From positions 1 through 63,111 of the forward strand of contig JAMDCU010000158.1 of the NCBI GenBank assembly GCA_023489485.1: a DNA stretch of 63,111 nt, read 5' to 3'. How positions within the stretch are numbered: position 1 is the stretch's first letter; the number at the start of each line of letters is the position of its first letter. Of the stretch, positions 31,467-53,196 are shown in pieces. The position numbers and the translations under genes were made by a program. The notes below the pieces were generated by a model. The model saw only the letters and a list, made by a program, of their open reading frames with translations, was not told the DNA's origin and made no database searches. This stretch comes from Chloroflexota bacterium. Its GTDB lineage: Bacteria > Chloroflexota > Anaerolineae > UBA4142.

Positions 31467-31532
31467 TCCCTCGGCGACGCGTCCCGAGCGAGTCAAAAGA
31501 CGCGACGCATTTCCGGCGTAAGTGAAAGGTGT

Positions 31533-31647: not shown

Positions 31648-31670
31648 CCACGCGCCATCGGTCGAGCCCC

Positions 31671-32033
31671 TCACGCCGAGCCGCTTGGCTCGGGAGTGAC
31701 GGTTTTGAGCCAGCCGCCGAGCAACCGTCCCAGTTGGGCGATTATCTCGGAGGCGTAGCGATATTGCCGGCTCGAAATCCACTGCCAGCGCTCGCACAAA
31801 CGCAAGTACAGACGCACTTTGAGCAGTTCGGTGTCGGCCGCGCGCAGCTTTTGGGCGCGCATATTACCGCGGTGCGAATTCGCCTCGATCAGTAATTCCT
31901 GAAAGTTCAGCGCGGCATCCTGTAGACGACGCGTGACCACAAAGCGCTGCGCGCGCGGGAAACGCAACGTCAGCGGGACCAGCCAAGAAACGAAATCATA
32001 CGTCCGTGCAAAGATGATCATTTCCTCAGACAT
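31671..32033 (-). CDS. avd: DGR accessory variability determinant (Avd-like four-helix-bundle protein)
   Basis: 120 aa from the ATG at 32033, which overlaps the RT stop by 8 nt. [42 protein letters not shown]...[10 protein letters not shown] matches the Avd / 23S-IVS-protein pattern. The track start at 32126 lies inside the RT gene. Confidence 0.8.
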
Positions 32034-33087
32034 GCGTGACCTCGTCGGCGCGCAGGCCATACCGGTCCAGGAGCGCGCGGCGCAAGCCGTACGTGTCGCC
32101 ATGGCCCGCGTGGTTGATCCACCCACGCACGGATGCGTTCACGCGCTCGCGCGGCGCGGTCGCCAGCAAGTATTTGAGCCGCCGCTGAAAGGCGATTCCC
32201 TTGCGGCGTTTCAAACGACGATGATCTGGGAAAATGATAAAGCCGAGAAACGGAATTCCCTCGCGGACCGGGTACGGGCGGGCGCTTTCGGTGTGAATCG
32301 TCAGCCGATAGCGTGCGAGCCGCTCGATCAGCGCTGCGCGCCATTCCCACAATTGCGCCTTGCTCTCGCTGAAAAGCAAGAAATCGTCCACATACCGCAG
32401 ATACACCGGACAGCGTAGTTCGCGCTTGACGAACTGATCGAAGGGGTTCAGATAAACGTTGGCCCACCATTGCGAAGTGAGGTTCCCGATTGGAAGGCCG
32501 CGCGGGCGCGTCGCGGCAAACAGATCGTCGCCAGGAAAAAGAACGAGGCGATATTCTTCGGATAAGACATCGCGTCCGCTCGCGAGAATTCGATCAATGA
32601 GCCACTGTAGATCCGGTGTGGGGTGGATCAATTGTTCCAGCGTCTCCCGCAAAATCGCGTGATCGATGGAAGGAAAGAACTGCACCACATCGCCTTGCAA
32701 GACGTAAGGGAATCGGCGCGCAAATTGTTGGCACCGGTCGAGTGCGCGATGCGTGCCTCTGCCAGTCCGATTGGCATAACTGTCCGGCAGGAAAGCGCGT
32801 TCGAGACACGGCACCGTCACGCGGCAGAGCGCGTGATGCACGACCCGGTCGCGAAAGGGCGCGGCAGAGATGAGCCGGCGCTTGGGTTCGTGGATGAAGA
32901 ACGAGTGGTAGGCGCCGGGTTGGTAGGTCTGCGCGCGCAATTCGTCTTGTAGCTTGAGCAAATTGTCCGCGAGTCTGAATTCGAAAGTCGCCGTTGCCGC
33001 GCGCCCACGCTTGCCGCGCGATGCTGCGCGAAACGCTTGCCATAAATTGTCCCAGGCGTAAACTTGATCAAGGTCTATTCTTTCCAT
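32026..33087 (-). CDS. DGR reverse transcriptase
   Basis: 353 aa. RT motifs include RRLISAAPFRDRVVHHAL, GLPIGNLTSQWWANVYL (the DGR-type I/LGxxxSQ signature) and YLRYVDDFLLF (YxDD). Confidence 0.95.
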   Translation of the reverse strand: MERIDLDQVYAWDNLWQAFRAASRGKRGRAATATFEFRLADNLLKLQDELRAQTYQPGAYHSFFIHEPKRRLISAAPFRDRVVHHALCRVTVPCLERAFLPDSYANRTGRGTHRALDRCQQFARRFPYVLQGDVVQFFPSIDHAILRETLEQLIHPTPDLQWLIDRILASGRDVLSEEYRLVLFPGDDLFAATRPRGLPIGNLTSQWWANVYLNPFDQFVKRELRCPVYLRYVDDFLLFSESKAQLWEWRAALIERLARYRLTIHTESARPYPVREGIPFLGFIIFPDHRRLKRRKGIAFQRRLKYLLATAPRERVNASVRGWINHAGHGDTYGLRRALLDRYGLRADEVTHV

Positions 33088-35074
33088 TTTTCATTTTTCC
33101 ACGAGGGGGCGCTGTGTGCCCCCTCGTGCTCCCCCGGGCGATCAGAGATTCAGAGTTCAGAGAGCCAGAGATCAGAGGTGGATGGGCGACGCACAAACCC
33201 GAAAACCGTAGGACTCGAGACGGTAGCCTGGAAGGTTGAAGTAGCGAGAGGCGCAGCGGACGCTCGTAGCATCGAGGTTGAACGCGCCCCCCCCGCAAAA
33301 CGCGGTATTGCCCTGATTCCGGTCCCGCCGGATTCTTCGCCGGTGACTTTTGATAGTACGCCTCGTCCCACCAATCGGCGCACCAATCCCACACGTTCCC
33401 CGCCATATCCACGCATTTGTATGGACTGTCTCCGTGCGAGTTATACTTGCCCACGGGCGTCTTCGTACCGACGTTGTTGCCAAAGTTGCACAGATTCGGG
33501 CTGGGCGCGTTATTCCCCCAAGGATAGATTCTGCCGTCAGTGCCGCGTGCCGCTTTTTCCCACTGCGCTTCGGTTGGTAGGCGAATCTCCGTCCCATTTA
33601 CTTGGCTCGCCCATTTGCAGAACGCAACCGCGTCATCCCAGTTGACGCCCGTGATCGGATGATTGCCCTTCTGATTCACATTGCCAGACACCGTAATCTG
33701 GTAACCTGTCGCCTTGACAAAAGCCCAGAATTGCAGAACTGTCACCGGGTACTTGCCGATATAGTACTCATCCAATTCGACGGTGTGTTGCGGCTTTTCC
33801 TTCGCTTCTGCATGCCCATCGTTGTTTCCGCTTCCCATCGCAAATTCGCCTGCAGGTACACGCACCAGTACCAGTTCAATGCCTTGCGCCAATTGCAGAA
33901 CGATTTCGTCGCCGCTCTGGAATCGCTCCAGCGACCGCTCCGCGTGCGTGAGCCGGGTTTGCGCTGCCCTTTGCTTTTCGTCGGCTTTTCGCCGCGCCTC
34001 TTCCGCCTCCAATGCGGCTTGGCGCGCTTGCGCTTGCTCCTGTTGCAGTTCCTTCAGCAGCGTTTCAGTTTCTCCCGCCAATTGATCCAGTTGCGCGGCT
34101 TGCGCTTCCGCCAGTCGCTGCGCACGTTCGGCCTCCTCCTTCTGCCGCTGCAGCGCCTCAATCCGTGCTCGCGCTTGGGCTACCGCCGTCTCGCGCACTT
34201 GCATCAGTTTCGCCGTTTTCTCCGCCGTGGCCTGCTGTTCGGCGCTCAGCGCGGCTTGCAGCGCTTGGACGAACGCGGTCGCATGCTTGGGACGGTCGGC
34301 AGGACGCTTGGCAAGCGCGCGCAGGACTTGGGCGGCAAGCGCAGGCGGAAGGTCGGCTCGCAGATCGAGCGGGTTGGGCGGTGGTGCATCAGCATGCATC
34401 CGCACTACCGCGACCGGCGTGTTTGCACGGAACGGTATCTGACCGGTGAGCATCTCAAATACGACCACCCCGAACGAGTAGAGATCGGAGCGTTCGGTGG
34501 CCGGCTGGCCGCAGGCTTGCTCGGGCGAAAGATACTCGGCCGTCCCAATAAAGCTTTGCGATTGGCTGATGGTGCTCATGTAGGCGGAGCCTTCGATCCC
34601 ACGCATCAGCCCAAAATCGCTCAGGTATGCGCGCCCATCCTCGTCCAATAGGATGTTTGCCGATTTCACGTCGCGGTGGACCACACCCTGCGCGTGGGCA
34701 TAGTCCAGTGCGCCGGCCACCTGTGCAGCGATGCGGAGTACCATTGGCACGGCGAGCGCGCCGGAATCGTGCAGCCGCGTGCGCAAGTCAAAGCCCCGCA
34801 CGAGCGTCATCGCGATGTAAAAGCGTCCTTGCGCCTCGCCGTAATCGAGCGACCTGACGATGTTGGGATGGTCGAGCTTGGACGTGAGTTTGAACTCTTG
34901 CTGAAAGCGCGTGATGAACGTGGGGTCGTCCGCGAGCTTGGGATCAAGCGCTTTGACCGCGACATCGCGCTGGTTTTTTTCGTCGCGTCCGAGGTACACC
35001 GTCGCAAAGCCACCGCGACCGAGTTCACGAAAGAGCGTGTAAGGACCGAGAGAAAATGGAAATTGATTAACCAA
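33068..35074 (-). CDS. STK4: Ser/Thr kinase, coiled coil, FGE-sulfatase/C-type-lectin-fold domain; DGR target, reading frame broken inside VR1
   Basis: TTG start. GRGGFATVY, HRDVKSANILL, DFGL. ~110-aa coiled coil with no hydrophobic TM stretch. FGE motifs [78 protein letters not shown]. As assembled the frame slips at the G8 run and ends at 33068. With G7 the protein would end at 33172 (..FRVCASPIHL*). Confidence 0.85.
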   Translation of the reverse strand: MVNQFPFSLGPYTLFRELGRGGFATVYLGRDEKNQRDVAVKALDPKLADDPTFITRFQQEFKLTSKLDHPNIVRSLDYGEAQGRFYIAMTLVRGFDLRTRLHDSGALAVPMVLRIAAQVAGALDYAHAQGVVHRDVKSANILLDEDGRAYLSDFGLMRGIEGSAYMSTISQSQSFIGTAEYLSPEQACGQPATERSDLYSFGVVVFEMLTGQIPFRANTPVAVVRMHADAPPPNPLDLRADLPPALAAQVLRALAKRPADRPKHATAFVQALQAALSAEQQATAEKTAKLMQVRETAVAQARARIEALQRQKEEAERAQRLAEAQAAQLDQLAGETETLLKELQQEQAQARQAALEAEEARRKADEKQRAAQTRLTHAERSLERFQSGDEIVLQLAQGIELVLVRVPAGEFAMGSGNNDGHAEAKEKPQHTVELDEYYIGKYPVTVLQFWAFVKATGYQITVSGNVNQKGNHPITGVNWDDAVAFCKWASQVNGTEIRLPTEAQWEKAARGTDGRIYPWGNNAPSPNLCNFGNNVGTKTPVGKYNSHGDSPYKCVDMAGNVWDWCADWWDEAYYQKSPAKNPAGPESGQYRVLRGGRVQPRCYERPLRLSLLQPSRLPSRVLRFSGLCVAHPPLISGSLNSESLIARGSTRGHTAPPRGKMKNGKNRP
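33102..33126 (-). promoter_or_regulatory. GC-rich 9-bp hairpin downstream of VR1 (second copy 51903-51927)
   Basis: cgagggggc-gctgtgt-gccccctcg. It sits 60 nt 3' of VR1 and 15 nt before the RT ATG. It is part of an ~84-nt flank that is ~93% identical at both VR loci. Confidence 0.6.
33186..33301 (-). repeat. DGR variable repeat VR1
   Basis: Encodes ..[39 protein letters not shown]. Identical to TR1 except at 15 TR-adenine positions, plus one extra G in a G7 run (C8 on + at 33287-33294 versus C7 at 31634-31640). Confidence 0.9.
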
Positions 35075-37329: not shown

Positions 37330-37357
37330 ACAGTTTCCCCCAGACCCGTTCAGATCA

Positions 37358-39221: not shown

Positions 39222-39312
39222 TGCCGGCCTCCGTTCAACCCCGGTCAGGACTAGAATGTTGTTCTAACTCGAATTTAGGGCAAGATGAATCGCGGGCTCA
39301 GCCAGCTCGTAA

Positions 39313-41892: not shown

Positions 41893-42019
41893 GTAAGCTC
41901 CAGCGCTGTGAATGAAAATCAGCCGAGTATCAGCGCCTCTTTATGATTTGGCTGCTCTCGCCAGTCGGGAGCACGATATAGCCTTCTTGAGCAGAAAGAT
42001 GCGGATTGGAAGGGAATCA

Positions 42020-44578
42020 CTATGGTCTGTAATCGGGCCCACCGGGCGCCCAGACTGGAGTGTACGATATCCAACCCTTGGAAAAGTCATCCGCCGTCTC
42101 CTGGTAAATAGCTATCTTGGGGTCGGCGCAGTCGCCGTTCGGATCGCAGGTCAGGTTACCCGTGATGCCTTTGAAATCTTTCGTCGCAGCAATCGCATCC
42201 CGCAGCGCTTGCTTCTGAACGTGCAGCGTGCCATCCGCATCCTTGGCGACCACACCCGGTTTCTGGAGGGCAGCGAGGACGATATTCATCGCGTCGTACG
42301 AATGGGCATGGAACGGGGCGAGCACGCCCGGGACATTGTATGTCTTCTTGTACTTGTCGACGAGCGTCTGATAGCCACTGCCGAAAGCGGCAAAGTTCGG
42401 GCTGGACCAGAACATGCCGATGATATTCTTGCCACAGCTCCTCACCACGTCGGGCGAGAACGTGCCATCGGAGCTTAGCATGACGACCTTTTCCAGATTA
42501 GGCACATCCCGGATTTGTGAACAGATGAAGCTGCCCTCACTCATAAAGATGGGGAAGTAGATGATCTGAGGTTTATTCGCCGCGATGCGGGTCAGAACCG
42601 GCTTCATGTCCTTGTCGCCGACATTCACGGCTTCCTGGTTCGTGACCTTGCCGCCGGCTTTCTGGAAGTTGTCGACAAAGGCGTTGACGAGACTCTGGGC
42701 ATAGATGCTGCCATCATGAATCGTGGCTGCTGAGGTGAACTTCAATTGGGTGGCGACGAACTGAGCCGCAACCGCGCCCTGGACCTTGTCGTTGGGGGCC
42801 GTGCGGAAATAGCCCGCCACGTGCTGGGCCGGGTCGGTTAGGGCAGGGGAGGTGTTCGCGGGAGAAATCATGCTCAGCCCTTGCTGCTGCATGAGGATCG
42901 GAATCGAGGCAGCCGCAGCGCTGGAGCAGTCGGTGCCGATCACCGCGACGACGGTCTTGTCCGCGGCGATCTTGGTGGCTGCCGCCTGCCCACCTTCGGC
43001 GCTGCACCCTTCATCCTGGCCGTCGAACTTGATAGTGTGGCCGAGAACTTTGCCGCCCGCATCGTCAATCGCCAACTCGGCGCCGTACTTGGTATCGAGA
43101 CCGAACGTCGAGTTGTCGCCGGACGTCACGAATTCATAGGCGATGTGAATTGGATCATTGGGCCCGATATCCACGCAGCCCAGTTTGTCCGAGCAGGTGA
43201 ATTTGCCACCGGCAACGGGAGCCGTTGTGGCGGCAGGTGCGGCCGCGGCGACCGGCTTTCCGCTCGAAAGTGCTGTGGTCGGCGGCACAGCAGTCGGCAC
43301 TGCCGTGGGCTCCATTCTGCCCGCACCTGCAAAAGCAGTGGAGGTACTGACAATTGCCGCGGTAACTGTAGGTGCCGCGGTTGGCACCTGCGAAGGGCCA
43401 GTACCCGTTGGTCGTAGGGCCATTGAGATTACAGCGATACCCAGGCACACAAAGATCGATAGCAGCGCCCCAATTCCTAATAGGCTCTTCCCCCCTCCAC
43501 CGTCGGAACCCTTTGAACCTTGGGCGCTCTGTCGTTTCCGCTCTACCTCTTGCTGCCGGGCTTTTTCAGCCGCCTCGGCCTGTGCGCGGCGCTCCGCCTC
43601 CATTCTAGCCTGACGATCGGTCGCTTCTCGTTGCTCCTGCTGCTGCCGCTCAAATTCCGCCCGCTCCCTTGCCTCGCGTTCGGCTTGTTCCTTTACCTCG
43701 CGTTCACTGCGGGCTTGGCCCTCCATTCCAGTGCGGAGAGCTCTGGCCGCTGCTTCCATGGTCACATACCGCTTTTCGGGATTATTGGCATCCGCCGCTC
43801 TCACCCCCGGCGCCTCGCACAGCATGCGCATGACGATGGTATCCAACCACTCGGGCACCTCGGGGCGCAAATCTCGAACACGGTTCACCTTGTGCCGCAC
43901 CTGCTTCCACACCTTGCCTGTGAGCATCTCAAAGGCCACACAACCTAATGAGTACACATCTGAGGTTGGACTGAGCGGTTCCCAGCTATTGTGCTCCGGA
44001 GAGCGGTAGTCAGGAGTGCCTGGGTGCATGCCTGCCACACTTCCGAGCTCCGACCGCATGCTCGACTGGCCTCCGCCAACCTGTGCGAGACCCAGGTCGG
44101 CAATCTTCGCCGTCCCCTCCTTGTCCAGCAGGATATTGGAGGGTTTCACATCGCGGTGAATTACGATAAGCTTCTCGTGCAGGGCTTCCAGGCCAGCCGC
44201 GCAATCCAGGAGAATCTCGAGCGCCCGCTCAATGGGGAGGGGAGCAGATTTCTTGAGCAGGTCGGCCACGCTTCCGCCGGGAGCATATTCTAGAACGGCA
44301 TAGAGTGCTTCTGACTCTTCTACCAGGTCGTGCACCTTAATCACGTGCGGATCATCTATCTGGGCGGCGATCTGGAACTCGGTCTTGTAGCGCTCGCGAT
44401 AGTCTTTGTACACCGTGCTCCCAACGCCCGGTGCATCCGCTCGCAGCACCTTGATCGCGCGGAGCACGTTCAGTCCCAGGTGCCGCGCAGAATACACCTG
44501 CGCAAACGCGCCTCGTCCAATGAGCGCCTCAATGCGGTACTTGCCGTTCAGGATCAGGTCTCCCGGTTGAAGTGTCAT
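42020..44578 (-). CDS. STK7: Ser/Thr kinase, coiled coil, TM helix, type-1 periplasmic binding domain (LivK/branched-chain amino-acid-binding-like)
   Basis: [23 protein letters not shown] segment LLGIGALLSIFVCLGIAVISMAL. C-terminal ~380 aa resembles Peripla_BP_6 (..IHIAYEFVTSGDNS..YGAELAIDDAGGKVLGHTI..VVAVIGTDCSSAA..). Confidence 0.9.
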   Translation of the reverse strand: MTLQPGDLILNGKYRIEALIGRGAFAQVYSARHLGLNVLRAIKVLRADAPGVGSTVYKDYRERYKTEFQIAAQIDDPHVIKVHDLVEESEALYAVLEYAPGGSVADLLKKSAPLPIERALEILLDCAAGLEALHEKLIVIHRDVKPSNILLDKEGTAKIADLGLAQVGGGQSSMRSELGSVAGMHPGTPDYRSPEHNSWEPLSPTSDVYSLGCVAFEMLTGKVWKQVRHKVNRVRDLRPEVPEWLDTIVMRMLCEAPGVRAADANNPEKRYVTMEAAARALRTGMEGQARSEREVKEQAEREARERAEFERQQQEQREATDRQARMEAERRAQAEAAEKARQQEVERKRQSAQGSKGSDGGGGKSLLGIGALLSIFVCLGIAVISMALRPTGTGPSQVPTAAPTVTAAIVSTSTAFAGAGRMEPTAVPTAVPPTTALSSGKPVAAAAPAATTAPVAGGKFTCSDKLGCVDIGPNDPIHIAYEFVTSGDNSTFGLDTKYGAELAIDDAGGKVLGHTIKFDGQDEGCSAEGGQAAATKIAADKTVVAVIGTDCSSAAAASIPILMQQQGLSMISPANTSPALTDPAQHVAGYFRTAPNDKVQGAVAAQFVATQLKFTSAATIHDGSIYAQSLVNAFVDNFQKAGGKVTNQEAVNVGDKDMKPVLTRIAANKPQIIYFPIFMSEGSFICSQIRDVPNLEKVVMLSSDGTFSPDVVRSCGKNIIGMFWSSPNFAAFGSGYQTLVDKYKKTYNVPGVLAPFHAHSYDAMNIVLAALQKPGVVAKDADGTLHVQKQALRDAIAATKDFKGITGNLTCDPNGDCADPKIAIYQETADDFSKGWISYTPVWAPGGPDYRP

Positions 44579-44611
44579 AGACGATCCCAGCCTCCTGTGT
44601 CTCGGTAACGC

Positions 44612-45706
44612 CTACTGAAATGAGAAGCTTTCAAATTTGGCCAGGTCCTTTTTCGACACGGACGGTTTGACCTGATTGATCACCGTTAGGAAATCGCGCA
44701 TCTCCACGCATCGCTCTTGTCCCGTTTTAACCGCCTCGATGAATGGAATAGCGCTTGCCTTGTCACAGATATTGCGAATATCGGCACCACTGTAACCCTC
44801 GAGCATCTCTGCGATTTCGTCGAGCTTCATCTCGGGTGCCAGCGGTTTGCCCTTCAGGTTCAGTTCGAGCATCCGTTTGCGGGCCGCCGAATCAGGAAGC
44901 GGAATATACATCTTGTCGTCAAACCGTCCGGGGCGGAGCACGGCCGGATCAAGCGACCACGGCTCGTTCGTCGCGCCGATGAAAAGCAACGTCCCCTTCT
45001 TCTGCTCGAACCCCTCTAGCTCCATCAAAATCTGTGGGACGACACGCTGCATCACCGTCGAGCCGCTCTCGCGGCGCTTGGGGACGAGCGATTCCACTTC
45101 GTCAATGAAAATGACGGCGCGTGGGTAGCTGTGGGCAGCATTAAACAGCTTTTGCACGTTCTGCTCCGCCTCGCCGACCCACTTGCTCATGATTTCGGAA
45201 GGCTTGACTGAAAAGAAGGCGGCATCCAGTTCGCCTGCGATCGCCCGGGCAATCAACGTCTTGCCAGTGCCCGGCGGCCCGTAGAGCAAAATGCCGCCGC
45301 CTGTACGGATGCCAAAGCGCTTGGCTTCATCAGGATGGGTGAATGGATAGATCATGCGCAGGCGAATCTGCTCCTTCACCTCATCGAGGCCGGCTACATC
45401 TTCGAAGCGGACGTTGGGACGTTCTGCAATGAGCCATCCCGATTCAGTCCCAGATTCCGGGGCCGCTTCGGTTTTCTGAACGGGTGCAGGGAGCCTGACC
45501 TTTTCCAGGGTGCGTGCGCGTTCGATAAGCTCTTCAGCTTGACGGATTCGCTGCTCACGCACCTCGCCGCGGGTCTGCTGGGCGGCCTTGAACAGCATCT
45601 CGGCCGCTTTTAGATACTGAAAGCGCGCCTGCTCGAATAGCCCCTTGCTCTGTAGGTCAACCCCTTTCTCAAGGTGCTCGGCGGCTTGGTTTCGGAAAAA
45701 GTCCAT
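44612..45706 (-). CDS. MIT-like domain + AAA ATPase (Vps4/katanin-clade-like), copy 1
   Basis: N-terminal three-helix MIT-like region (..GLFEQARFQYLKAAEMLFKAAQ..QRIRQAEELIERARTLE). Walker A LLYGPPGTGKTL, Walker B VIFIDEVESL. Single AAA module, 364 aa. Confidence 0.8.
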   Translation of the reverse strand: MDFFRNQAAEHLEKGVDLQSKGLFEQARFQYLKAAEMLFKAAQQTRGEVREQRIRQAEELIERARTLEKVRLPAPVQKTEAAPESGTESGWLIAERPNVRFEDVAGLDEVKEQIRLRMIYPFTHPDEAKRFGIRTGGGILLYGPPGTGKTLIARAIAGELDAAFFSVKPSEIMSKWVGEAEQNVQKLFNAAHSYPRAVIFIDEVESLVPKRRESGSTVMQRVVPQILMELEGFEQKKGTLLFIGATNEPWSLDPAVLRPGRFDDKMYIPLPDSAARKRMLELNLKGKPLAPEMKLDEIAEMLEGYSGADIRNICDKASAIPFIEAVKTGQERCVEMRDFLTVINQVKPSVSKKDLAKFESFSFQ

Positions 45707-45794
45707 GGCAGATTTCCTCTACGCGATTCCTTAATCAGCGAACGAGCATAAGGTTAGTCACTTTTTGACCGCGATTCACGATGGCAAGGAGCAT

Positions 45795-47099
45795 CTACTT
45801 GTTCAACCAAGACGGCACGGCCAAACTCAACTGGTTCTTTGCCTCGCTTGCCAGAGCATGAACGTCACCTGAGGTCGAAAGAGTAAGCAAACTGAGCATC
45901 GCCAACCGCGAATCCACATTCATGCGGGCATCCGAGCGGACGAGCTGGTTCAGGTCGGACGGCCCGATATTATTGAGGTCGTAGGTCAGATTGGCGGCAA
46001 TGATCACGGCGAAGGGAGCCGTCTGCCAGCCCGCATTCTTGGCGATCTTGTCCATCAGCAAATAGCCCACGGCATAGCGAAGCGGCTGACGGATCTCGGA
46101 GGAAATGATCTCATCTACCTGCGGGCCAAAGAGCTGGATTGTCACAATGGCCTTATGTACATCGTCCATGCCCGGCTGGTCAATGGTAAAAAGCACCTTC
46201 AGAGCCTGCTGCAAATATAGTGAGATATCCTTTAGTTCTTGGCTGCCCGACTCCAGTTTCTTGAGAGCCTGAAGTGTGGCATCCAACGTGTGAGGCTCAC
46301 GACCATTAGCACCCAAACGCGACATGAGGAATGTCTCGATCCAAGTGGCCCAGCCCTCTTCGGTGAGCTGAGACTCGGTAAAGATAATCGCGCTCTTCTG
46401 GGCGAGGAGCGTTGCTTGAGGCGAGTCGACCACGGCCAAATTGAACCGGTTGGCAAGTTGTATCTGGGCGAGGCCGAGCTGCTTTTTCTCATTGCCGAGC
46501 GCGGTAGACTCGGTGATGAACCCGTGCCCCAGTTTCTCGTGCGCGATGGTTGAGAGTATGCTCGCCAAAACGTCCGGATCCTGGAGAGCCGCACGCGGCG
46601 CATAGCCACGCCCGTAGGCGAAGAGCCACCCGTTGAGATAGCAGCCGCGCCCAGGCAAGCTGACGCCAAAGATGCCTCCTCCGTTGGTTTCGCGCGCCGT
46701 CCGCTCCGCCTCGGCAATGAGCTGCGCAAGGGCGGCCGCTTTGCCTTCTCCCGACAGATTCAATTCTTTGACAAAAGGGCCAAAGAATTCTTCGAGCGTT
46801 TCGGCGTAGACGGTCGGATAGTTTAGGTTGGCACCCGGCATGTAACGGCGGAGTTGAAAGGTCTCGATGAATAAATCATCCATCTTCCGCAGCCCAGCAT
46901 CGCCTGTCAGATCGATGCGCGCGGTGAGAGGCGACGGCGGGCGCGCCGCAATCCCATTCGCACGCGGAGATGCGGGTACGCATGGCCGCGTCTTGCCGAA
47001 CAGATCTTCGAGGTCTGACGCAAGTCTCTGCGCGTGCTCCACCTGTTGCTGCTTCAACTTTTCTTCGAACGACGGGATTGGACTGTTCTCGTTTGTCAT
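45795..47099 (-). CDS. Hypothetical protein with an HExxH motif (possible Zn-metallopeptidase)
   Basis: 434 aa. ATG is preceded by ACAGGAG. The only recognisable motif is STIAHEKLGHGF; no family assignment. Confidence 0.4.
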   Translation of the reverse strand: MTNENSPIPSFEEKLKQQQVEHAQRLASDLEDLFGKTRPCVPASPRANGIAARPPSPLTARIDLTGDAGLRKMDDLFIETFQLRRYMPGANLNYPTVYAETLEEFFGPFVKELNLSGEGKAAALAQLIAEAERTARETNGGGIFGVSLPGRGCYLNGWLFAYGRGYAPRAALQDPDVLASILSTIAHEKLGHGFITESTALGNEKKQLGLAQIQLANRFNLAVVDSPQATLLAQKSAIIFTESQLTEEGWATWIETFLMSRLGANGREPHTLDATLQALKKLESGSQELKDISLYLQQALKVLFTIDQPGMDDVHKAIVTIQLFGPQVDEIISSEIRQPLRYAVGYLLMDKIAKNAGWQTAPFAVIIAANLTYDLNNIGPSDLNQLVRSDARMNVDSRLAMLSLLTLSTSGDVHALASEAKNQLSLAVPSWLNK

Positions 47100-47316
47100 C
47101 GGTATCTCCTGTCACCATCCGGCGCACGACCAGAGCGAATCCGCGTGGTCAGGAGGGTGCCTTGCCTCAGGGCTCGGCCGGCGCCTACGGTCTGGGGCAG
47201 GGCGGTTCTTATTCGGTTGGGGATCACCCAACCAGGAACAAGTCTATAGTTCACCCTTTTCGCCTCGGTCGTCCGTCCTTGAACGCAAGACAATCCGGCG
47301 CACCTGCAGCGGGAGA

Positions 47317-49272
47317 CTATTGGGCGCAGCGAAACCCAATGGGGTTGTTACGGCCGACCGGCGTGCCGTCGCTGCGGCCGGACGCGCGTACGGAGTCCTG
47401 AAAGTAGTTCCAGGAGCCGCCGCGCAGCACGCGATATGGCCCAGAAGATGGTCCCTGCGGGTTCTTGCGCGGCGCGTTGGCATAGTATGCCTGATCGTAC
47501 CAATCTGCCACCCACTGCCACACATCCCCTGCCATATCCATCGCACCGTACGGGCTCGCACCCGCTGCATAACTCCCAACCGCGGTCGTATCTCCCTGCC
47601 CACCTTCCCATGAATTGAGCAAGGCCCTGTCGAAGGTGCTACCCTAGGGATAGATTCGTCCGTCCGTTCCCCGCGCGGCTTTTTCCCACTCCGCTTCGGT
47701 TGGCAGCCGCTTGCCCGCCCACGTGCAGAAGGTGCCTGCGTCATTCCAGGACACATAGATGACGGGATAGTTGTCGTATTCTGCATTGCCATAGTAGGAA
47801 CTGCGGGTGGAGGAGCCTGAGTTGGAAGGCGCTTGGCATTTGCCGGCATCCAGGCAGCGTTTGTACAGCGCGTTCGTCACCTCGAATTTGTCTATATCAA
47901 AGGCATCGAGGTAAACCGTGTGCTGCGGCTTTTCGTCGCTTCGTGCCATCGAGTCGCTGTTACTGCTGCCCATCAAGAAATCGCCGGCAGGTACAAACAC
48001 CATCGGCGCGCCGCCGATCACGCGCTCCTCGCCTGAGGCGGTGGCTTGTGTGGCGGCAGGCATCGGCGTGAAATAGGCTGCAGCCGTAGGCGCTTTCGTA
48101 CGAGGCGCGGCGGCTACGGGCGTAAGAGTTGCCACCCGAATGATCTCTGGCCCGGTCAGCGCCGCAATCGTGGCGATTCCCACGACCAACACCAGCGTAA
48201 CAAGGCAGCCGGCCAAGGCCCAGCTCCTGATTCGCTTGCGCCGGCGCGCGGCATCTTCCCCTGCGCGGCGCTCCGCCTCCTGGCGTGCGGCGACCTCGCG
48301 GGCGCGTTGTTCTTGTCGCTCCCGCTCGGCGCGCTCGCGTGCTTGTTGCCCTTCCAGTTCCCGCTCGGCTTGCTCCCTCGCCTGTCGCTCTGCCTCCGCG
48401 ACTCGCTTTTGCCCCTCGCGGAGCGCTGTCGCGACGGCGCTCATCGTCACATAGCGCTTGGCGGGACTCGCGGCATCTGCCGCCTTTAGCCCCGGCATGT
48501 CGCATAGCATCCGCATGACGATCGCTTCCAGCCACTCGGGCGCCTCGAGTCGCAGGTCGCGCACCCGCGTCACTTTGTGCATCACCCGCTTGTATACCTT
48601 GCCCGTCAGCATCTCGAAGGCGATGCAGCCCAGACTGAACACATCTGAGGTCGGTCCTAGCGGCTGCCAGCCGTCGTGCTCGGGCGAGCGATAATCCGGC
48701 GTGCCGGGATGCATCCCTGCCTGGCTCCCCAGTTCGCTGCGCATGCTGGATTGACCGCCGCCGACCTGCGCCAGCCCCAAATCCGCAATCTTGGCTCTGC
48801 CGTTCTTGTCCAGCAGAATATTCGAGGGCTTTACATCCCGGTGGATGATCTCCAGGTCGTGAAGCGCTTGGAGACCTGCTGCACAATCGAGCAGGATTTC
48901 AACGACTCGTTCGACCGGAAGTGGAGACTCTTTAACGATCAGATCTTTGAGGCTGCCGCCCGGGGCGTATTCCAACACAGCATAAAGGGATTCCGGCTCC
49001 TCAAAGACGTCATACGCCCGGATCACGTTCGGATGGTCGACTTGCGCCGCGATCCGGAATTCCTCTTTGTAGCGTTGAGCATAGTCGCGAAATGTCGTGC
49101 TCCCCACGCCGGGCGCGTCGGAGCGCAGCACCTTGATCGCGCGCAGCACGTTCAGGTCGAGATGCCGTGCACGATACACCTCAGCAAACGCGCCGTTACC
49201 GGCAAGCGCTTCGATGCGATACTTGCCGTTGAGGATTACGTCGCCAGGCTGCAACATCCTTTTGTCTACCAT
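47317..49272 (-). pseudogene. STK8: Ser/Thr kinase, coiled coil, TM helix, FGE-sulfatase domain; one in-frame TAG
   Basis: A single frame runs from 49272 to 47317, interrupted by TAG at 47644-47646 at the Trp of the conserved DGRIYPWGN motif (it reads RIYP*G). Kinase motifs [23 protein letters not shown] segment [25 protein letters not shown] tail ..GDVWQWVADWYD..YRVLRGGSWNYFQDSVRASGRSDGTPVGRNNPIGFRCAQ*. Confidence 0.8.
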
Positions 49273-49315
49273 GACTGCCCTACGCTGGGTTTGTCCGAAA
49301 CCTGTCTATTTGCCA

Positions 49316-51397
49316 TCATGAGTCTGCGGCCTGGGTCCGCGATCCGATTATTTCAACCCGTAACAATCCAACCATTCCTTTGACGCGAATACGCGGAGCT
49401 GGCGCGCCGGCGCCCGTTCGCACGATCACGGCCCCGGCGTCGTCCTCGGTCACGATATCCGGAGCCGCCCGTACGTTCAACGGGAATGCCTTTTGTTCGT
49501 GGTGATCGCGCCCACGATCGTCGCGGTAGGTAAGCTCCACCATCAGATTCCCGGCTCCCGTCGGCACCATCTCCAGAATGAACTCGCTCGATCCATGAGC
49601 GCCGATCCGCAGCGGCTCAGTTGTCCAGATCGGCTGCGCCAGGACTCCGCCCAGCCGGATAAATACCTCTGCCTCTGATTTGCCGCGGTTCTTAATCTCA
49701 AACGCTATGGGCGCCTGTTGGTCCGGCTCGAATTGGCGCTCGGCCGTGAGACAGCGCAAGGTCAGGCGCGGCGCGGGGTCGAGCAAGGACGCCTGCCGCT
49801 CACACTCTTGCACCTCGCCGAAGAGCTCTGCTTCGTCGAAGCACTCAGCAGCCTCGTACAACAACTCTACGGCCAGTGCACGGTCGCGTCCGACCACGAG
49901 TTGCGCCGCCGATTGGAACTCGCGGCCGACCTCGGCCGGCTTGGCCCAGAGCTGGGCGCGCAGCAACCGTGCCGCAAGGTCCGGGTGGCCGGCAGACGTA
50001 AACAAGGCGCGCGCTCGCTCAATGTACTTGCGCTTGCGGGCATAATCTGCACTCTCCATTTCACCCGCAAGCGCCCAGAGGCCCGCAGCCACTGGACGGC
50101 TTCCGCGCTGTTCCTCTCGCAAGGCCGATTCCGCATAGTGCCCGAGATGCCACGGCAGCGCGACGATCGCTCCGGCATCCGATCCGATAAAGATAGTGTC
50201 GTCATACGCGATTGGGCTGGTCAGGAGCGGCGCGCCGAGCTCGCACTTCCAGAAGAGCGATCCGGTGGTAGCATCCAGAGCATATACCTTGCCATCATTC
50301 GCTCCAAAGACGACGAGGCCTCGCACGACGACCGGGGTTGTCGCGATCCCGGCGCCGACCTCTTGATTCCACGCCGGCTCGCCCGTCGCCGCTCGAATTG
50401 CGTACAAACGATGATTCAGGCAGCCGACGTAGAGCAGCCCACCATCTACCCCGGCAGAAGCGGGGAAGCCGAAGGAGCCGCGGTCCCCCGGCTGCCCCAG
50501 AACGGTAAAGGGTTCGCGCCAAATTGCCCGGCGCGTCCGCGCATCCAACGCATAGAGCAGGCCGGTCGAAGGATAGTCGTGGAACGCCGTGACGTACAGT
50601 TTCCCATCGGCCTGAACGGGAGTGCCGCGGACGTTGCCAGCAACGCCAAACTCCCAACTCTTGCAACTGCTGTCGCTGTCGAACGCGACGACTTGGCCAT
50701 CGGTCCGATCGTGTGTCCTGCCGTAAGTCGCCACGATGATAGATTGAACCACACCGCGCTCGGTAACGAATATCGGCGAGGCAGGGACCGGCGTAGGATG
50801 TCCGCATACCTGCAAGCGCTGCACGATGTGGCCGTTACGCGCGTCGAGACAATAGAGCAAGCCATCGCCCGCAGCAGCATAGACGCGCACACCATCCACC
50901 GCGGGGGATCCACGGACGGCGCCGCCCAAGGGAGTGCGCCACTCTACTTTTCCGGTCTGTAGATCGAGCGCGACGACCGCTCCCTCCCCTGCGCCGATCC
51001 AGCGAGCCGCCGTGCCGACGACGATGCGCGCTCCCTCGGTATCCGCAATTGCCGCGCCGCCTTCCACGGGCATGCCAACGGATTCCTGCCAGATCGTGCT
51101 TCCATCTGCAAGATTGAGCAGCGTGACGCCGCCATCAGCCGGGCGCAGATCCGTCCTGCGCGGCGTATGTCCCCAAGCGGCAGCAAGCACCGGCTTGCCG
51201 TCGCACCGCGCAATCGCAAGCTGCACGGCGACGCTCCCCGGCACCTCGGCTCGCCAGACTGGCGTGTTCGGCGCGGCAGGCGTATCGAGCAACAGACGCG
51301 GCTGTCCGCACTCTGGACAGGCGGTGCCCGAGGGAAAGTAGGCGGAACAAGAAGGGCAGAAAGGGTACCCTGCCCGATTGTGAATTGGGTCATCCAT
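49316..51397 (-). CDS. Zinc ribbon, PQQ/BamB-like beta-propeller, helical repeats, beta-sandwich (paralogue of 39313-41892)
   Basis: ATG at 51397 (MDDPIHNRAGYPFCPSCS..CPECGQP). Propeller blades (ALDLQTGKVEWRT, CLDARNGHIVQRL, ALDARTRRAIWRE, AIRAATGEPAWNQ, ALDATTGSLFWKC). Helical region and a C-terminal beta domain as in the paralogue, but no C-terminal zinc ribbon. Confidence 0.7.
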   Translation of the reverse strand: MDDPIHNRAGYPFCPSCSAYFPSGTACPECGQPRLLLDTPAAPNTPVWRAEVPGSVAVQLAIARCDGKPVLAAAWGHTPRRTDLRPADGGVTLLNLADGSTIWQESVGMPVEGGAAIADTEGARIVVGTAARWIGAGEGAVVALDLQTGKVEWRTPLGGAVRGSPAVDGVRVYAAAGDGLLYCLDARNGHIVQRLQVCGHPTPVPASPIFVTERGVVQSIIVATYGRTHDRTDGQVVAFDSDSSCKSWEFGVAGNVRGTPVQADGKLYVTAFHDYPSTGLLYALDARTRRAIWREPFTVLGQPGDRGSFGFPASAGVDGGLLYVGCLNHRLYAIRAATGEPAWNQEVGAGIATTPVVVRGLVVFGANDGKVYALDATTGSLFWKCELGAPLLTSPIAYDDTIFIGSDAGAIVALPWHLGHYAESALREEQRGSRPVAAGLWALAGEMESADYARKRKYIERARALFTSAGHPDLAARLLRAQLWAKPAEVGREFQSAAQLVVGRDRALAVELLYEAAECFDEAELFGEVQECERQASLLDPAPRLTLRCLTAERQFEPDQQAPIAFEIKNRGKSEAEVFIRLGGVLAQPIWTTEPLRIGAHGSSEFILEMVPTGAGNLMVELTYRDDRGRDHHEQKAFPLNVRAAPDIVTEDDAGAVIVRTGAGAPAPRIRVKGMVGLLRVEIIGSRTQAADS

Positions 51398-51589
51398 CGC
51401 GATAGACCTGCTCAGCGCTATTTGGAGTCCGGTAGATGCAGCAGCCGTCCTGATCCGTGCGTACCGACCGCATCCGTGACGATCTGTGTGCGATAAGGCG
51501 GGGCGCTCCACCTCGAAGCCGATGGCTCAAGAAGTGGAGCATTTTTGGTATTCGCCTGCGGAGAGGTTTGCCCCATAACCCCGGTTTCC

Positions 51590-51620
51590 GCAGCCAGGGC
51601 ACCGACCGCGCCATTTTTCA
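51590..51620 (-). promoter_or_regulatory. Second copy of the 31-nt TR-downstream box
   Basis: See 31436-31466; 30/31 identical. Confidence 0.5.
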
Positions 51621-51675
51621 AGCCGCGTCAGCGCAGCCGTAGCCGCGCTGAATTTCTGGCACGCTGGAAAAACGT

Positions 51676-51799
51676 GCGACACGCACGCCCGCAACCCGTT
51701 GTTGTCGTTGCGATTGTCAGGGTTGTTGTAGTTGCGGTACGCGCAGCGGACGTTGTTCTCGTTGTTGTTGAACGACCCGCCCCGCAAAACGCGCGTGTC
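51676..51799 (-). repeat. Second template-like repeat TR2, with no adjacent RT or Avd
   Basis: The - strand encodes [37 protein letters not shown], with 13 Asn (12 AAC, 1 AAT). About 80% identical to TR1. It lies ~190 nt downstream of the VR2 gene stop. Confidence 0.7.
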
Positions 51800-51902
51800 T
51801 TTCGGTCGAGCCCTTCATGCCGCGTTTTGCGACGCTGACATGACACGATGAATGGTCTCTCGACATGTTGCGAGAGCGACGACGATTGAAAAACCTTTTC
51901 GA

Positions 51903-51927
51903 CGAGGGGGCGCTGTGTGCCCCCTCG
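51903..51927 (-). promoter_or_regulatory. GC-rich hairpin downstream of VR2 (copy of 33102-33126)
   Basis: Identical cgagggggc-gctgtgt-gccccctcg. Confidence 0.6.
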
Positions 51928-51972
51928 TGCTCCCCCAGACGATCAGAGATTCAGAGTTCAGAGACCCGGAGA

Positions 51973-53196
51973 TCAGAGCTGAATGGGCGACACGCACACC
52001 CGCAACCCGTCTTCATCCAGGCGGTCGTCAGGATTGAGCCAGCTGCGGTACGCACAGCGGGCATCGGCCTCGTCGCTGCCGCTGAACGACCCGCCCCGCA
52101 AAACGCGCGAGTCGCGACTGTTGGTGTCCTCCTGTCCATCACCCCTCTCGTACGGATAAGGCTTGTACAAGCTGCTCGTCCACTCCCACACATTTCCTGC
52201 TATATCTGCGCAGCCATACGGGCTATCTCCGCGCGGGCTGTACTCGCCTACCGGCGTCGTGTCCTTCACATTCATATTGAAGTTGCAGCGGTTTGCGTCC
52301 GGCGCGTCGTTGCCCCATGGATAAATTCGCCCATCGGTACCGCGCGCCGCTTTCTCCCATTCCGCTTCGGTTGGCAAGCGCACGCTGCGTCCAGTTGTCT
52401 CGCTCACCCATTCGCAAAACGCCACCGCATCATCCCAGCTCACCAGCACTACCGGATGGTTTGCCTTCCCGCTCACATTGCTCTCGGGTCCCCGCGGATG
52501 CTGCCAATTTGCGCCCCTGACCTCTTTCCATCCACTCCCTGTGAAAGTCCACCCGCTGCCTTGCTGCTCTGCCGTCGTCTGATAGCTCGTGGCTTTCACG
52601 AATGCCGCAAACTGCGACACCGTCACGGGATACCTGCCAATCAGATACTCATCGAGGAATACCTTCTGCTGCGGTTGCTCGTTACTGTCCGTTTGCCGAT
52701 CCTTCCTCGGATCGCTGCCCATCAGAAACTCACCCGCCGGCACACGCATCAGTTCCAATGTCACATCCGGTGCCAGCGTGAGAATCAATTCATTCGCTTT
52801 GCGCTGGCCCTCTCCCGTCTCATTTCGTGCTTTTGACTCCGCTTCGCGTCGCGCCTGCTCCTCGGCTTCTTTCTTCCATCGCCTTTCCTCGATCGAAGCA
52901 CACTCATTGCAGATGAATAAAGCAGGATGCTGGTGGCGGAGACAAATGAATTCGCGTGTACATTTCCTGCACCGGAACGTTTCTTCGCGGCGGTTGTACT
53001 TGCCACAGAGTGGGCATTCGCCTCCGCCTAACGGGGTCGCCTGCTCTCCAATGACTACGGTTCCGGCCTTGACAACCGTGCCCCGGACGTTGACGATATC
53101 GCCGTCATCCGCGGCAAGTTGTGGCAATCTTGCACCGCAGTTTTGGCAGAACCTCGCGTCGTTCGGTTGATCGCGCTCACACTGGGGACACCGCAT
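51973..53196 (-). CDS. Zinc-ribbon / Cys-rich N-terminus, short coiled coil, FGE-sulfatase (C-type-lectin-fold) domain carrying VR2
   Basis: MRCPQCE..CQNCGARL, then CPLCGK..CRKCTREFICLRHQ..CNEC. FGE motifs [60 protein letters not shown]. No TM segment. Confidence 0.85.
   Translation of the reverse strand: MRCPQCERDQPNDARFCQNCGARLPQLAADDGDIVNVRGTVVKAGTVVIGEQATPLGGGECPLCGKYNRREETFRCRKCTREFICLRHQHPALFICNECASIEERRWKKEAEEQARREAESKARNETGEGQRKANELILTLAPDVTLELMRVPAGEFLMGSDPRKDRQTDSNEQPQQKVFLDEYLIGRYPVTVSQFAAFVKATSYQTTAEQQGSGWTFTGSGWKEVRGANWQHPRGPESNVSGKANHPVVLVSWDDAVAFCEWVSETTGRSVRLPTEAEWEKAARGTDGRIYPWGNDAPDANRCNFNMNVKDTTPVGEYSPRGDSPYGCADIAGNVWEWTSSLYKPYPYERGDGQEDTNSRDSRVLRGGSFSGSDEADARCAYRSWLNPDDRLDEDGLRVCVSPIQL
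51987..52113 (-). repeat. Variable repeat VR2
   Basis: Encodes RGGSFSGSDEADARCAYRSWLNPDDRLDEDGLRVCVSPIQL*. Aligns to TR2 with most changes at TR adenines, but also ~10 non-A changes and one extra codon. Confidence 0.7.

Follow-up and report, generated by a model that had tools for sequence, protein, structure and literature searches.

A predicted DGR template-RNA unit and variable repeat far from the only reverse transcriptase on a Chloroflexota contig: a possibly dormant paralogue of a complete element

We analyzed a stretch of 63,111 nucleotides from a Chloroflexota bacterium (contig JAMDCU010000158.1 of assembly GCA_023489485.1), which we refer to in its entirety as the window. It holds one complete DGR, designated DGR1, in which the gene order is target-VR-RT-avd-TR. 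Its features are as follows:

32026-33087, minus strand: reverse transcriptase (RT), the only one in the window, intact, with YVDDF and IGNLTSQ motifs (Pfam RVT_1, translation, tblastn of the window)
31671-32033, minus strand: bAvd accessory protein (Pfam bAvd, 1.4e-18)
31365-31700, minus strand: TR1 RNA unit, with TR1 at 31531-31647 and a downstream box at 31436-31460 (alignment, folds, covariance models)
33068-35074, minus strand: target gene 1, Ser/Thr kinase with FGE domain, containing VR1 at 33184-33301, with a hairpin at 33100-33128 (Pfam, alignment, fold)

The RT is a DGR-clade enzyme with the YxDD and I/VGxxxSQ signatures. Its closest relatives are Chloroflexota DGR RTs that have TR/VR pairs, and its family is very large, with 7877 proteins reaching E <= 1e-60 among 8000 candidates scored. 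Between TR1 and VR1, 16 of 28 adenines are changed and none of the 89 other bases; beyond these 16 changes, VR1 has one additional G in a G-run.

Another pair of repeats lies in a region of the window that we call cassette 2. Every feature of cassette 2 and DGR1 is on the minus strand:

51973-53196, minus strand: target gene 2, double zinc ribbon and FGE-sulfatase (C-type-lectin-fold), 407 aa, frame intact (ORF list, translation, Pfam)
51985-52104, minus strand: VR2, the last 40 codons of target gene 2 (alignment to TR2)
51896-51984, minus strand: VR2 3' flank, with an IMH-like end that includes the stop codon, a CTCTGA-rich spacer and a G+C-rich hairpin at 51902-51928 (alignment, DNA fold)
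51845-51895, minus strand: filler that separates the hairpin region from the TR2 unit, in the place that RT and avd occupy in DGR1 (no homology found)
51505-51844, minus strand: TR2 template-RNA unit (folds, covariance models)
51815-51844, minus strand: 5' hairpin of the TR2 unit, with homology to the final ~30 nt of the DGR1 avd gene (alignment, folds)
51803-51813, minus strand: 5' strand (GGGCTCGACCG) of a long-range duplex closing around TR2 (MFE fold)
51674-51790, minus strand: TR2, template repeat (alignment to VR2)
51505-51672, minus strand: TR2 3' RNA module, consisting of GCCAGAAAT, a 9-bp stem with a UACG loop, the box at 51590-51614, a stem-loop, the A-rich AAUACCAAAAAU and a terminal hairpin (covariance models)

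The original prediction had placed a DGR-type repeat pair here, beside a second FGE target and with no RT or Avd nearby, and each of these points is confirmed. The alignment of TR2 with VR2 yields differences at 16 of the 30 TR2 adenines and at 10 of the 87 non-A positions (odds ratio 8.8, Fisher p = 8.9e-6), together with a 3-nt insertion that gives VR2 one extra codon; an earlier hand count of about 17, about 10 and one codon was close to these values. The product of target gene 2 matches Pfam DZR (9.6e-08) and FGE-sulfatase (5.3e-63), so that VR2 sits at the 3' end of an ORF with the C-type-lectin/FGE fold. The sole RT is 18.7 kb from TR2, and neither a second RT nor a second Avd was found in the 63-kb window by Pfam or tblastn. 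No homologue of target gene 2 above 62% identity was found in other samples.

The differences between TR2 and VR2 are concentrated at TR adenines, as is characteristic of DGRs, but they are not essentially A-to-N only, since 10 non-A substitutions and the 3-nt indel are present. Surveys of DGRs allow for 'minor exceptions' (PMC5758913) or fewer than four non-A substitutions (PMC6642488), and the VRs of relatives normally have 0-2 non-A mismatches each. Eight of the 10 non-A differences fall at third codon positions (8/39 vs 2/48, p = 0.04). All 30 TR2 adenines occupy codon position 1 or 2, and no TR2 codon is mutable to stop. TR1 and TR2 are ~81% identical and differ at 2 of 28 A sites vs 24 of 89 other sites (p = 0.02), indicating that the TR adenines are preserved. 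The homology between TR2 and VR2 reaches 51799 on the TR2 side and 52113 on the VR2 side, the two repeats are spaced 195 nt apart, and VR2 has 31 nt of perfect homology at its 5' end and a single mismatch at its 3' end.

We considered other sources for these repeats. TR1 was rejected as the template of VR2 because the alignment requires 20 non-A mismatches and 7 gap positions, which identifies TR2 as the cognate repeat of VR2; nor is VR2 identical to the RT-adjacent TR at all non-adenine positions, as a remote target would be. Conversely, TR2 was rejected as the template of VR1 (18 non-A mismatches). Other placements of the 3-nt gap did not lower the number of non-A mismatches. A chance origin of the repeat was rejected as well, given the adenine bias (p = 8.9e-6) and an exact box match that is unexpected by chance. 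TR2 and VR2 are cognate DGR-type template and variable repeats. Because the adenine bias is strong, the alignment shows VR2 to be the product of past writing from a TR2-like template.

The DNA downstream of VR2 resembles that of VR1 closely. As had been proposed, the hairpin-containing flank is common to both, with 88 of 95 positions identical (93%) in a comparison that starts at 51990, 6 nt inside VR2, whereas the adjoining FGE coding DNA of cassettes 1 and 2 is only about 61-76% identical. Both flanks carry G+C-rich hairpins with stems of 10-11 bp; that of VR2 has a 10-bp stem and a 7-nt loop in the DNA fold. The predicted VR2 flank would thus provide an IMH-type end and a downstream hairpin/cruciform of the kind described for DGR targets (PMC3240598).

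On the RNA side, TR1 and TR2 lie in units with the same fold architecture. A box of 31 nt downstream of both TRs had been claimed, and we find 25 nt exactly shared (51590-51614 and 31436-31460; none expected by chance) within a region that is 80% identical over 54 nt. In the minimum-free-energy fold, the 5' strand GGGCTCGACCG pairs with 51593-51604, so that a long-range duplex (strands GGGCUCGACCG/CGGUCGGUGCCC) closes around TR2. The TR1 unit contains GGGCTCGACCG unaltered, and covariation of this strand is seen in four relatives (L003, L004, L015 and L037). Between DGR1 and cassette 2 the box strand is identical at 25/25 positions and the 5' strand at 12/13 (37/38 together). The helices of cassettes 1 and 2 are only 44-64% identical with pairing kept, and the 5' hairpin shows a compensatory change (UCAC/GUGA in TR1 vs UCAU/AUGA in TR2). 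The duplex covariation was read directly from the sequences: whole-unit RNAalifold missed the long-range duplex owing to misalignment in L004 and L015, and an RNAduplex matrix of cognate vs non-cognate strands was too noisy with long G+C-rich segments.

Covariance models gave a consistent picture. Model R1 scores the TR2 3' module at 53.3 bits (E 4e-13) and also recovers six relatives outside its training set (L011, L006, L010, L005, L149 and L151). Model R2, built from L003, L004 and L037 only and including no window sequence, scores the TR2 flank at 49.5 bits (E 2e-12) and the TR1 flank at 57.2 bits, with the rest of the 63 kb at <=11 bits. Across the family, 88.9% of cells are paired vs 69.6% in shuffles and 36-49% in slid controls, and 22 pairs show double changes vs 11.2 in shuffles. 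The elements of the TR2 unit agree with those reported for DGR RNAs (10.1101/2023.10.23.563531). As modeled, TR2 is a complete template-RNA unit with the whole predicted RNA scaffold that DGR reverse transcriptases need, and, scored against relatives from other genomes, this scaffold is as well conserved as that of TR1. Apart from TR1, TR2 and a decayed module described below, the covariance models found no TR module in the window. At gathering thresholds, Rfam gave no match across the whole window, and a promoter and terminator scan around TR2 gave nothing above shuffles and no promoter-like site for TR2.

The homology of cassette 2 to DGR1 breaks off ~8 nt short of the RT start and is picked up again ~30 nt ahead of the avd stop. 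The intervening region (51840-51912) has no homology to RT or avd, with a local score of 21 vs a shuffled mean of 20.4, and no transposon or MITE was seen at this site. Cassette 2 is therefore a degenerate locus in the sense of PMC10907252, a paralogous locus lacking the RT and accessory gene beside a complete related locus. A third cassette lies nearby:

47158-49272, minus strand: cassette 3, third kinase-FGE gene and decayed TR 3' module (Pfam, covariance models)

The third kinase-FGE gene contains an in-frame TAG (47644-47646), and its stop (47317-47319) is directly abutted by the decayed TR 3' module (47158-47311). This direct succession suggests that cassette 3 is a collapsed former DGR, and it appears to have collapsed by VR x TR recombination.

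Among the relatives, L151 has the same VR-hairpin-TR-module layout as cassette 2, with 19 differences between its VR and that TR, all of them at adenines. The exact 25-nt box had no match in representative genome contigs, which points to a species outside the representative genomes searched. A degenerate box pattern had at least 120 matches in metagenome contigs, nearly all of them chance occurrences in coding DNA, and among the matches listed only L037 is a true relative. Other copies of the RT and a neighbor gene were found only on Logan SRR10244963 contigs, which are fragmented and broken at repeat forks. The contig with the neighbor gene ends exactly where TR2 and VR2 diverge; we rejected this end as a sign of VR2 heterogeneity, as it is a repeat-fork break. 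Where the additional G of VR1 was looked for in the Logan assembly, the contig stops short of target gene 1. Target gene 2 and its PQQ neighbor have no copy on record in the public assemblies searched.

To place the non-A changes on one repeat or the other, we polarized them with TR1 as outgroup. Six are derived in VR2, three in TR2 and one is ambiguous, and the extra codon is derived in VR2. Additionally, the VR2 codons TGG (Trp), GAA (Glu) and CTG (Leu) cannot arise from TR2 codons that end in C. Because the non-A differences and the codon are mostly VR2-derived and include residues that TR2 cannot encode, the comparison shows VR2 to have gone a substantial time without rewriting, both repeats having changed by ordinary mutation since the last writing. 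The original prediction that VR2 is not exactly templated by TR2 at present is thus upheld, given the 10 non-A differences and the extra codon. We infer that cassette 2 is probably quiescent now, being either unexpressed or unused, or having its rewritten variants selected against. Drift on the TR2 side amounts to just ~3/87 sites. With so little drift, an intact TR2 scaffold is no proof of present selection, and function could have been lost recently.

Could cassette 2 nonetheless be active, with the RT-Avd encoded 19 kb away acting in trans on TR2 RNA and VR2 still undergoing diversification? The non-A differences would then reflect a rarely rewritten, selectively retained allele or a one-haplotype assembly. 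The RT is intact, and so are all cis elements of cassette 2, which are matched to those of DGR1; VR2 retains the homology at both ends, the IMH-like end and the hairpin. Trans donors work experimentally (PMC3240598), and trans diversification has been inferred in Thiohalocapsa (PMC10907252). However, the 10 non-A differences and the extra codon would not survive any homing event, and all of them are still present; relatives with A-only patterns have 0-2 non-A mismatches, and VR2 contains residues that TR2 cannot template. We therefore regard present activity as unlikely. A consensus VR2 could stay fixed by purifying selection despite low-rate homing, which is a point against the reading we prefer below. 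It is also rather doubtful, to our mind, that one RT-Avd serves two template RNAs, the first encoded next to it and the second by a free-standing 'satellite' TR gene at a distance of 19 kb that has kept exactly the loading scaffold, and that cassette 2 is still rewritten at a low rate. Filamentous Chloroflexota-type DGRs would in that case be modular networks of a central enzyme with dispersed template and target cassettes.

At the other extreme, cassette 2 would be a pure fossil, a former complete DGR with its own RT2-Avd2 that died once these were deleted and was never served by the RT of DGR1, and the likeness of box and flank would be inherited or due to gene conversion. The breakpoints of homology are those expected for RT-avd loss from a full copy, VR2 and TR2 have both drifted, the neighboring cassette 3 is clearly dead, and this DGR clade has many degenerate loci (PMC10907252). 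Yet precisely the functional RNA unit was spared by the loss, the duplex strands match DGR1 at 37/38 positions though the duplex covaries freely among relatives, the VR flank is far more similar (93%) than adjacent coding DNA (61-76%), and the TR2 module scores nearly as well as that of TR1. A locus never served by DGR1 thus seems improbable. The near-identity of box and VR flank could also reflect gene conversion or the conserved specificity of a lost RT2-Avd2, which likewise weighs against our preferred reading. The original prediction had offered either drift of the cassette or writing from another TR copy. Drift is the better option, the changes being mostly VR2-derived. A third TR elsewhere in the genome that matches all non-A sites, possibly with a second RT/Avd, from which VR2 is or was last written, TR2 being a diverged sister copy, is a distinctly weaker candidate and very unlikely. 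The view is limited to 63 kb of the genome (a limit on our preferred reading too), the RT belongs to a very large family, multiple related DGR loci within a genome have been reported (PMC10907252), and three non-A differences are derived on the TR2 side. Against this, most non-A differences and the codon insertion are VR2-derived relative to both TR1 and TR2, including third-position changes typical of coding drift; the window has no further TR module, RT or Avd; and TR2 lies 195 nt from VR2, in the layout of the working pair of L151.

We favor, with a probability of about one half, the reading that cassette 2 is an RT-less paralogue of DGR1, diversified in the past and now quiescent, from which the original RT and avd genes have been lost. 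It could only work in trans. Its parts would be target 2, VR2, an IMH-like end with hairpin and a self-contained TR2 RNA unit; the DNA-side elements (IMH-like end, hairpin and homology at both VR2 ends) appear to be kept, and the putative sequence-specific parts are a near-perfect match to DGR1. When in use, TR2 RNA would probably have been made by read-through from target 2, bound in trans by the DGR1 RT-Avd complex, copied into adenine-mutagenized cDNA and then homed into VR2. Experiments on the Bordetella phage DGR have shown its donor functions to act in trans (PMC3240598, PMC5758913). Cassette 2 may then represent the middle stage of a local decay series between complete DGR1 and collapsed cassette 3.

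Were cassette 2 still functional, it would offer a clear example from nature of a DGR whose template RNA gene is physically separated from the enzyme. RT-Avd recruitment in trans would then require nothing beyond the RNA scaffold, and one enzyme could drive several independently templated targets, a matter of relevance for engineering DGR mutagenesis of multiple targets. If it is dormant, the window still displays three successive stages of DGR decay next to one another: a complete element, a cassette without enzyme genes and an apparently collapsed cassette with a nonsense-bearing target. A former hypervariable site would in that case be moving into residues that the DGR could not reach. The drift pattern offers practical markers for ex-targets and RT-less template units, which standard RT-centered, A-only pipelines would miss.

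Among known systems, the Bordetella phage BPP-1 DGR (avd-TR-brt, target mtd) shares the adenine-biased TR-to-VR differences, the VR at the 3' end of a C-type-lectin-fold target, and the IMH-like end followed by a G+C-rich hairpin. Its donor functions work in trans (PMC3240598; 10.1101/2023.10.23.563531), a likeness if trans use holds here, as we suppose. In contrast to BPP-1, the order here is target-VR-RT-avd-TR, a second TR unit stands without RT or avd within 18 kb, the hairpin is ~50 nt past the VR rather than a few nt, TR2/VR2 have 10 non-A differences and an indel, and the host is a chromosomal Chloroflexota-type lineage with no phage signs in the window. Cyanobacterial Ser/Thr-kinase-CLec targets (PMC7517822) are also similar, in that they form families of kinase-CLec and CLec-only paralogues, some in DGRs and some dispersed, with graded VR/TR homology that implies former targets that drifted. 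The phylum differs, and a term search of that report turned up neither multiple TRs nor action in trans, so that an RT-less template unit is not known to us next to its drifted paralogues.

Remote DGR targets (Treponema denticola, Legionella and others; PMC5758913) resemble cassette 2 in lying far from the RT, depending on RT/Avd in trans and having a VR with the 3' recognition flank of the cis target. They are defined by an A-to-N-only match to the RT-adjacent TR, whereas VR2 has 20 non-A mismatches to TR1 and its own template alongside. Multi-TR DGRs, such as that of Stenotrophomonas sp. SKA14 with two TRs and six VRs, likewise have one RT and two TRs, each with its cognate VR(s), and more than one TR was recorded for about 20% of multi-VR DGRs in the PMC6642488 survey. 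Their TRs lie within one cassette and they passed the filter of <4 non-A substitutions, whereas TR2 is 18.7 kb off and VR2 fails that filter. The suggestion that one RT with two TRs is unusual was therefore overstated, since such DGRs (PMC6642488) and RT-less 'degenerate' loci (PMC10907252) have already been described.

The degenerate loci of Thiohalocapsa PB-PSB1 (PMC10907252) are likewise several paralogous DGR loci in one genome, with the full machinery at one locus per class and the others lacking RT or TR or carrying pseudogenes. Their targets are CLec domains fused to kinases and other signaling domains, an RT and/or TR from another locus is inferred to serve them in trans, and the RT clade includes filamentous Chloroflexi. 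At all non-A sites, the RT-less loci of Thiohalocapsa agree with the TR of the complete locus, and diversification of most of them is visible in populations, unlike in cassette 2, which has its own distinct TR (~20% diverged from TR1), a VR2 that fits neither TR perfectly, and no transposon or MITE at the RT-avd loss site. Rather than a new system, cassette 2 appears to be a copy of an already known type that is dormant or in decay.

All of the relevant features lie on the minus strand, and the window holds a single complete DGR (cassette 1), made up of the following parts:

35074..33068, minus: target 1, a Ser/Thr kinase with an FGE domain
33301-33184, minus: variable repeat VR1
33128-33100, minus: G+C-rich hairpin after VR1
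33087..32026, minus: reverse transcriptase (RT; RVT_1, with YVDDF and IGNLTSQ motifs)
32033..31671, minus: bAvd
31647-31531, minus: template repeat TR1

In the computed alignment of TR1 with VR1, 16 of 28 adenines and 0 of 89 non-A bases are changed, the only indel being one extra G. This G, the sole non-A difference between the two repeats, belongs to the stretch of G at VR1's 5' end (33287-33294, minus; 8 G in VR1 versus 7 in TR1). Target 1 is frameshifted by it, such that the VR is read out of frame and the ORF end at 33068 overlaps the RT start; without the frameshift, the expected end is ...GFRVCASPIHL followed by a stop. Three origins are conceivable for the extra G: misassembly of the homopolymer, a genuine frameshift allele, or slippage in the course of homing.

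Cassette 2, ∼19 kb from this DGR, consists of a target gene with a VR and a TR of its own:

53196..51973, minus: target 2, a double zinc ribbon with an FGE domain
52104-51985, minus: VR2, the terminal part of target 2
51790-51674, minus: TR2, ∼195 nt beyond VR2

The original prediction of this pair, difference counts included, was borne out almost to the base by computed alignment: 16 of 30 adenines and 10 of 87 non-A bases are changed between TR2 and VR2, and VR2 carries a 3-nt insertion. As proposed, TR2 is not the exact current template of VR2. The differences are nonetheless biased toward adenines (odds ratio 8.8, p = 8.9e-6). Aligned with TR1, VR2 shows 14 of 27 adenines changed, 20 non-A changes and 7 gap positions; VR2 therefore does not behave as a remote target of TR1, nor does it differ from TR2 at adenines only. 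TR2 itself is a well-formed template: 30 of 30 adenines occupy the first or second codon position, and none of its codons is able to mutate to stop. Adenine sites differ between TR1 and TR2 in 2 of 28 cases, non-adenine sites in 24 of 89 (p = 0.02). A tblastn search of the 63 kb with the RT, Avd and FGE domain returned three FGE domains and both TRs but no second RT or Avd.

Folding of 350 nt around TR1, and likewise around TR2, gave one common architecture:

element 1: 5' hairpin, corresponding to the last 30 nt of avd in cassette 1
element 2: GGGCUCGACCG, pairing across the TR with CGGUCGGUGCCC inside the originally described downstream box
elements 3-4: the TR, then GCCRGAAAU
element 5: stem-loop, in TR2 a 9-bp stem with a UACG cap
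elements 6-7: the box, then a further stem-loop
elements 8-9: A-rich single strand (AAUAYCAAA), then a terminal hairpin

TR2 is a whole template-RNA unit and more than a repeat. The elements of both units correspond to those that DGR RNAs are reported to require for cDNA synthesis by bRT-Avd and to conserve in 207 DGRs (10.1101/2023.10.23.563531). With its mechanical GTG start at 51511, a PQQ-repeat ORF (minus) overlaps the TR2 unit's terminal hairpin; the likelier start is an ATG near 51399, before the CxxC...CxxC zinc-ribbon motif, and this would leave the entire unit intergenic.

The same RNA module is carried by RT relatives at 57-74% identity, all from Chloroflexota/Anaerolineae metagenome-assembled genomes. 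Among these relatives' loci, the long-range duplex covaries (GGGCUUGUCCG/CGGACAAUGCCC in L003; GGGGCAGGCC/GGCCUGCUCC in L015), with bulged or internally looped variants in L004 and L037. A covariance model of the 3' module trained on TR1 and four relatives scored TR2 at 53.3 bits (E 4e-13) and also detected the untrained relatives L011, L006, L010, L005, L149 and L151. With a second model, trained on three other genomes only and on no window sequence, TR1 scored 57.2 bits, TR2 49.5 bits and all else ≤11 bits. Across ten units, standard pairs fill 88.9% of pair cells versus 69.6% when shuffled and 36-49% with slid partners, and 22 of 34 pairs have changes on both sides versus 11.2 in shuffles, in an alignment which, being fitted to the model, favours structure somewhat.

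Identity between cassettes 1 and 2 is strongly mosaic when compared by segment:

box: 25/25 identical
5' duplex strand: 12/13 identical
VR 3' flank including hairpin: 88/95 identical
TR: ∼81% identical
helices: 44-64% identical, pairing kept
FGE coding DNA upstream of VR: 61% global, best local segments 65-76%

Homology to cassette 1 on the VR side ends ∼8 nt before the RT start codon and restarts ∼30 nt before the avd stop codon, and the intervening 50-60 nt of cassette 2 show no likeness to anything in RT or avd. Because homology stops and resumes at these points, cassette 2 has the appearance of an originally complete DGR that lost RT-avd and retained exactly the functional RNA unit. VR2 also appears to carry all of the experimentally defined VR-side requirements, namely an IMH-type end and a hairpin, together with homology at either end of the VR; donors have also been shown to act in trans (PMC3240598, PMC5758913).

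Our best explanation, about 50% probable, is that cassette 2 is an RT-less paralogous unit, in principle trans-dependent, that was once diversified and is now quiescent; it would depend on RT/Avd acting in trans. The sequence-specific elements of cassette 2 stayed identical to the surviving RT-Avd locus, though among relatives this duplex is free to covary. Such identity is what shared use of a single enzyme would yield; gene conversion, or a lost RT2 whose specificity was conserved, would yield it too. That cassette 2 is a pure fossil never served by the surviving RT is unlikely. That VR2 was written from a different template elsewhere in the genome is improbable.

Present activity in trans, for which cassette 2 retains the RNA unit and VR-side elements, is doubtful. 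During homing, all non-A bases of the TR are copied into the VR, yet VR2 has 10 non-A mismatches and an in-frame codon insertion, compared with 0-2 mismatches in relatives and 0 in VR1. Polarised against TR1, the 10 differences comprise 6 that arose in VR2, 3 that arose in TR2 and 1 of ambiguous origin; 7 of 10 are transitions and 8 of 10 fall at third codon positions. None of TR1, TR2 and VR1 has the extra codon, and several VR2 differences create TGG (Trp), GAA (Glu) or CTG (Leu), which C-ending template codons cannot give. Judged from these non-A differences, the extra codon and the codons TR2 cannot give, VR2 has changed by ordinary point mutation, with its reading frame kept intact, since it was last rewritten, and cassette 2 is probably not being rewritten now. 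Drift on the TR2 side is small (∼3/87 sites), an intact scaffold being in itself no proof of present selection. If the VR2 allele now present is under strong purifying selection, rare homing could go unseen. In Logan SRR10244963, contig L002 ends exactly at the last base common to TR2 and VR2, and contig L001 begins 43 nt ahead of the RT gene, inside the hairpin flank common to VR1 and VR2; these ends resemble breaks at a repeat fork and are no sign of VR heterogeneity.

Comparable layouts occur in relatives. Locus L151 (GCA_023481035.1, contig JAMCWU010000019.1, 8996-11760; RT 70% identical) combines a single RT with two bAvd genes, one of them inverted, and with two TR units. Its canonical unit after avd is broken ∼27 nt into the TR by a MITE-like insertion bearing an inverted repeat. 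The VR of L151 matches the other, intact unit, with differences at 19 adenines only; this unit follows the VR and hairpin immediately, an arrangement also seen in cassette 2. Another partly drifted target is the remote second VR of L010 (contig DAOUMU010000411.1, 14725-14852), which departs from its TR by 4 non-A changes plus a 3-nt insertion and has a 3' flank identical to that of the clean VR at the same locus. The target 2 orthologue of L145 (JGI 3300063055, 3882-5100; 54% identical, same AAA-ATPase neighbour) has a VR-like, diversified-looking end with an IMH-like flank (TCCCCCATCCCGCTCTGA) and a small hairpin; its 7.5-kb contig carries no TR module or RT.

Cassette 3 comprises a gene and a decayed module:

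47158-49272, minus: third kinase-FGE gene plus decayed module

Both covariance models matched the TR 3' module over its full length, but weakly, at 47311-47158 (12.9 and 11.0 bits), directly after the stop codon of the gene (47319-47317). The last ∼40 codons and the following stretch align collinearly with the units of TR1 and TR2, with the same spacing from the GFR codons to GCCGGA, and there is no VR-type flank or hairpin at cassette 3. The gene has an in-frame TAG (47646-47644) instead of the Trp of the conserved YPWG motif. On the simplest reading, VR x TR recombination collapsed a former DGR into cassette 3, a "tombstone"; such an event would have removed hairpin, RT and avd. Together with the relatives described above, cassette 3 gives cassette 2 a context that supports a decay series. 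Between the cassettes, 34400-51000 is an array of paralogous Ser/Thr kinase and zinc-ribbon/PQQ beta-propeller genes, in which repeat families D1, D5-D7, D12 and D13 share long segments 68-81% identical (for example, 43733-44032 versus 48418-48717 and 35158-35227 versus 37358-37427), suggesting repeated segmental duplication of sensor-like gene sets.

The TR2/VR2 finding is real, correctly described and of a known kind of element. Remote DGR targets are well known (PMC5758913), and one survey found more than one TR in ∼20% of multi-VR DGRs (PMC6642488). Cyanobacteria have kinase-CLec paralogues with graded VR/TR homology (PMC7517822). In Thiohalocapsa, whose DGR clade includes filamentous Chloroflexi, trans activity was inferred for degenerate DGR loci without RT or TR (PMC10907252). 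Particular to cassette 2 is an RT-less locus keeping its own distinct TR and a complete, well-conserved RNA scaffold, with TR2 18.7 kb from the enzyme.
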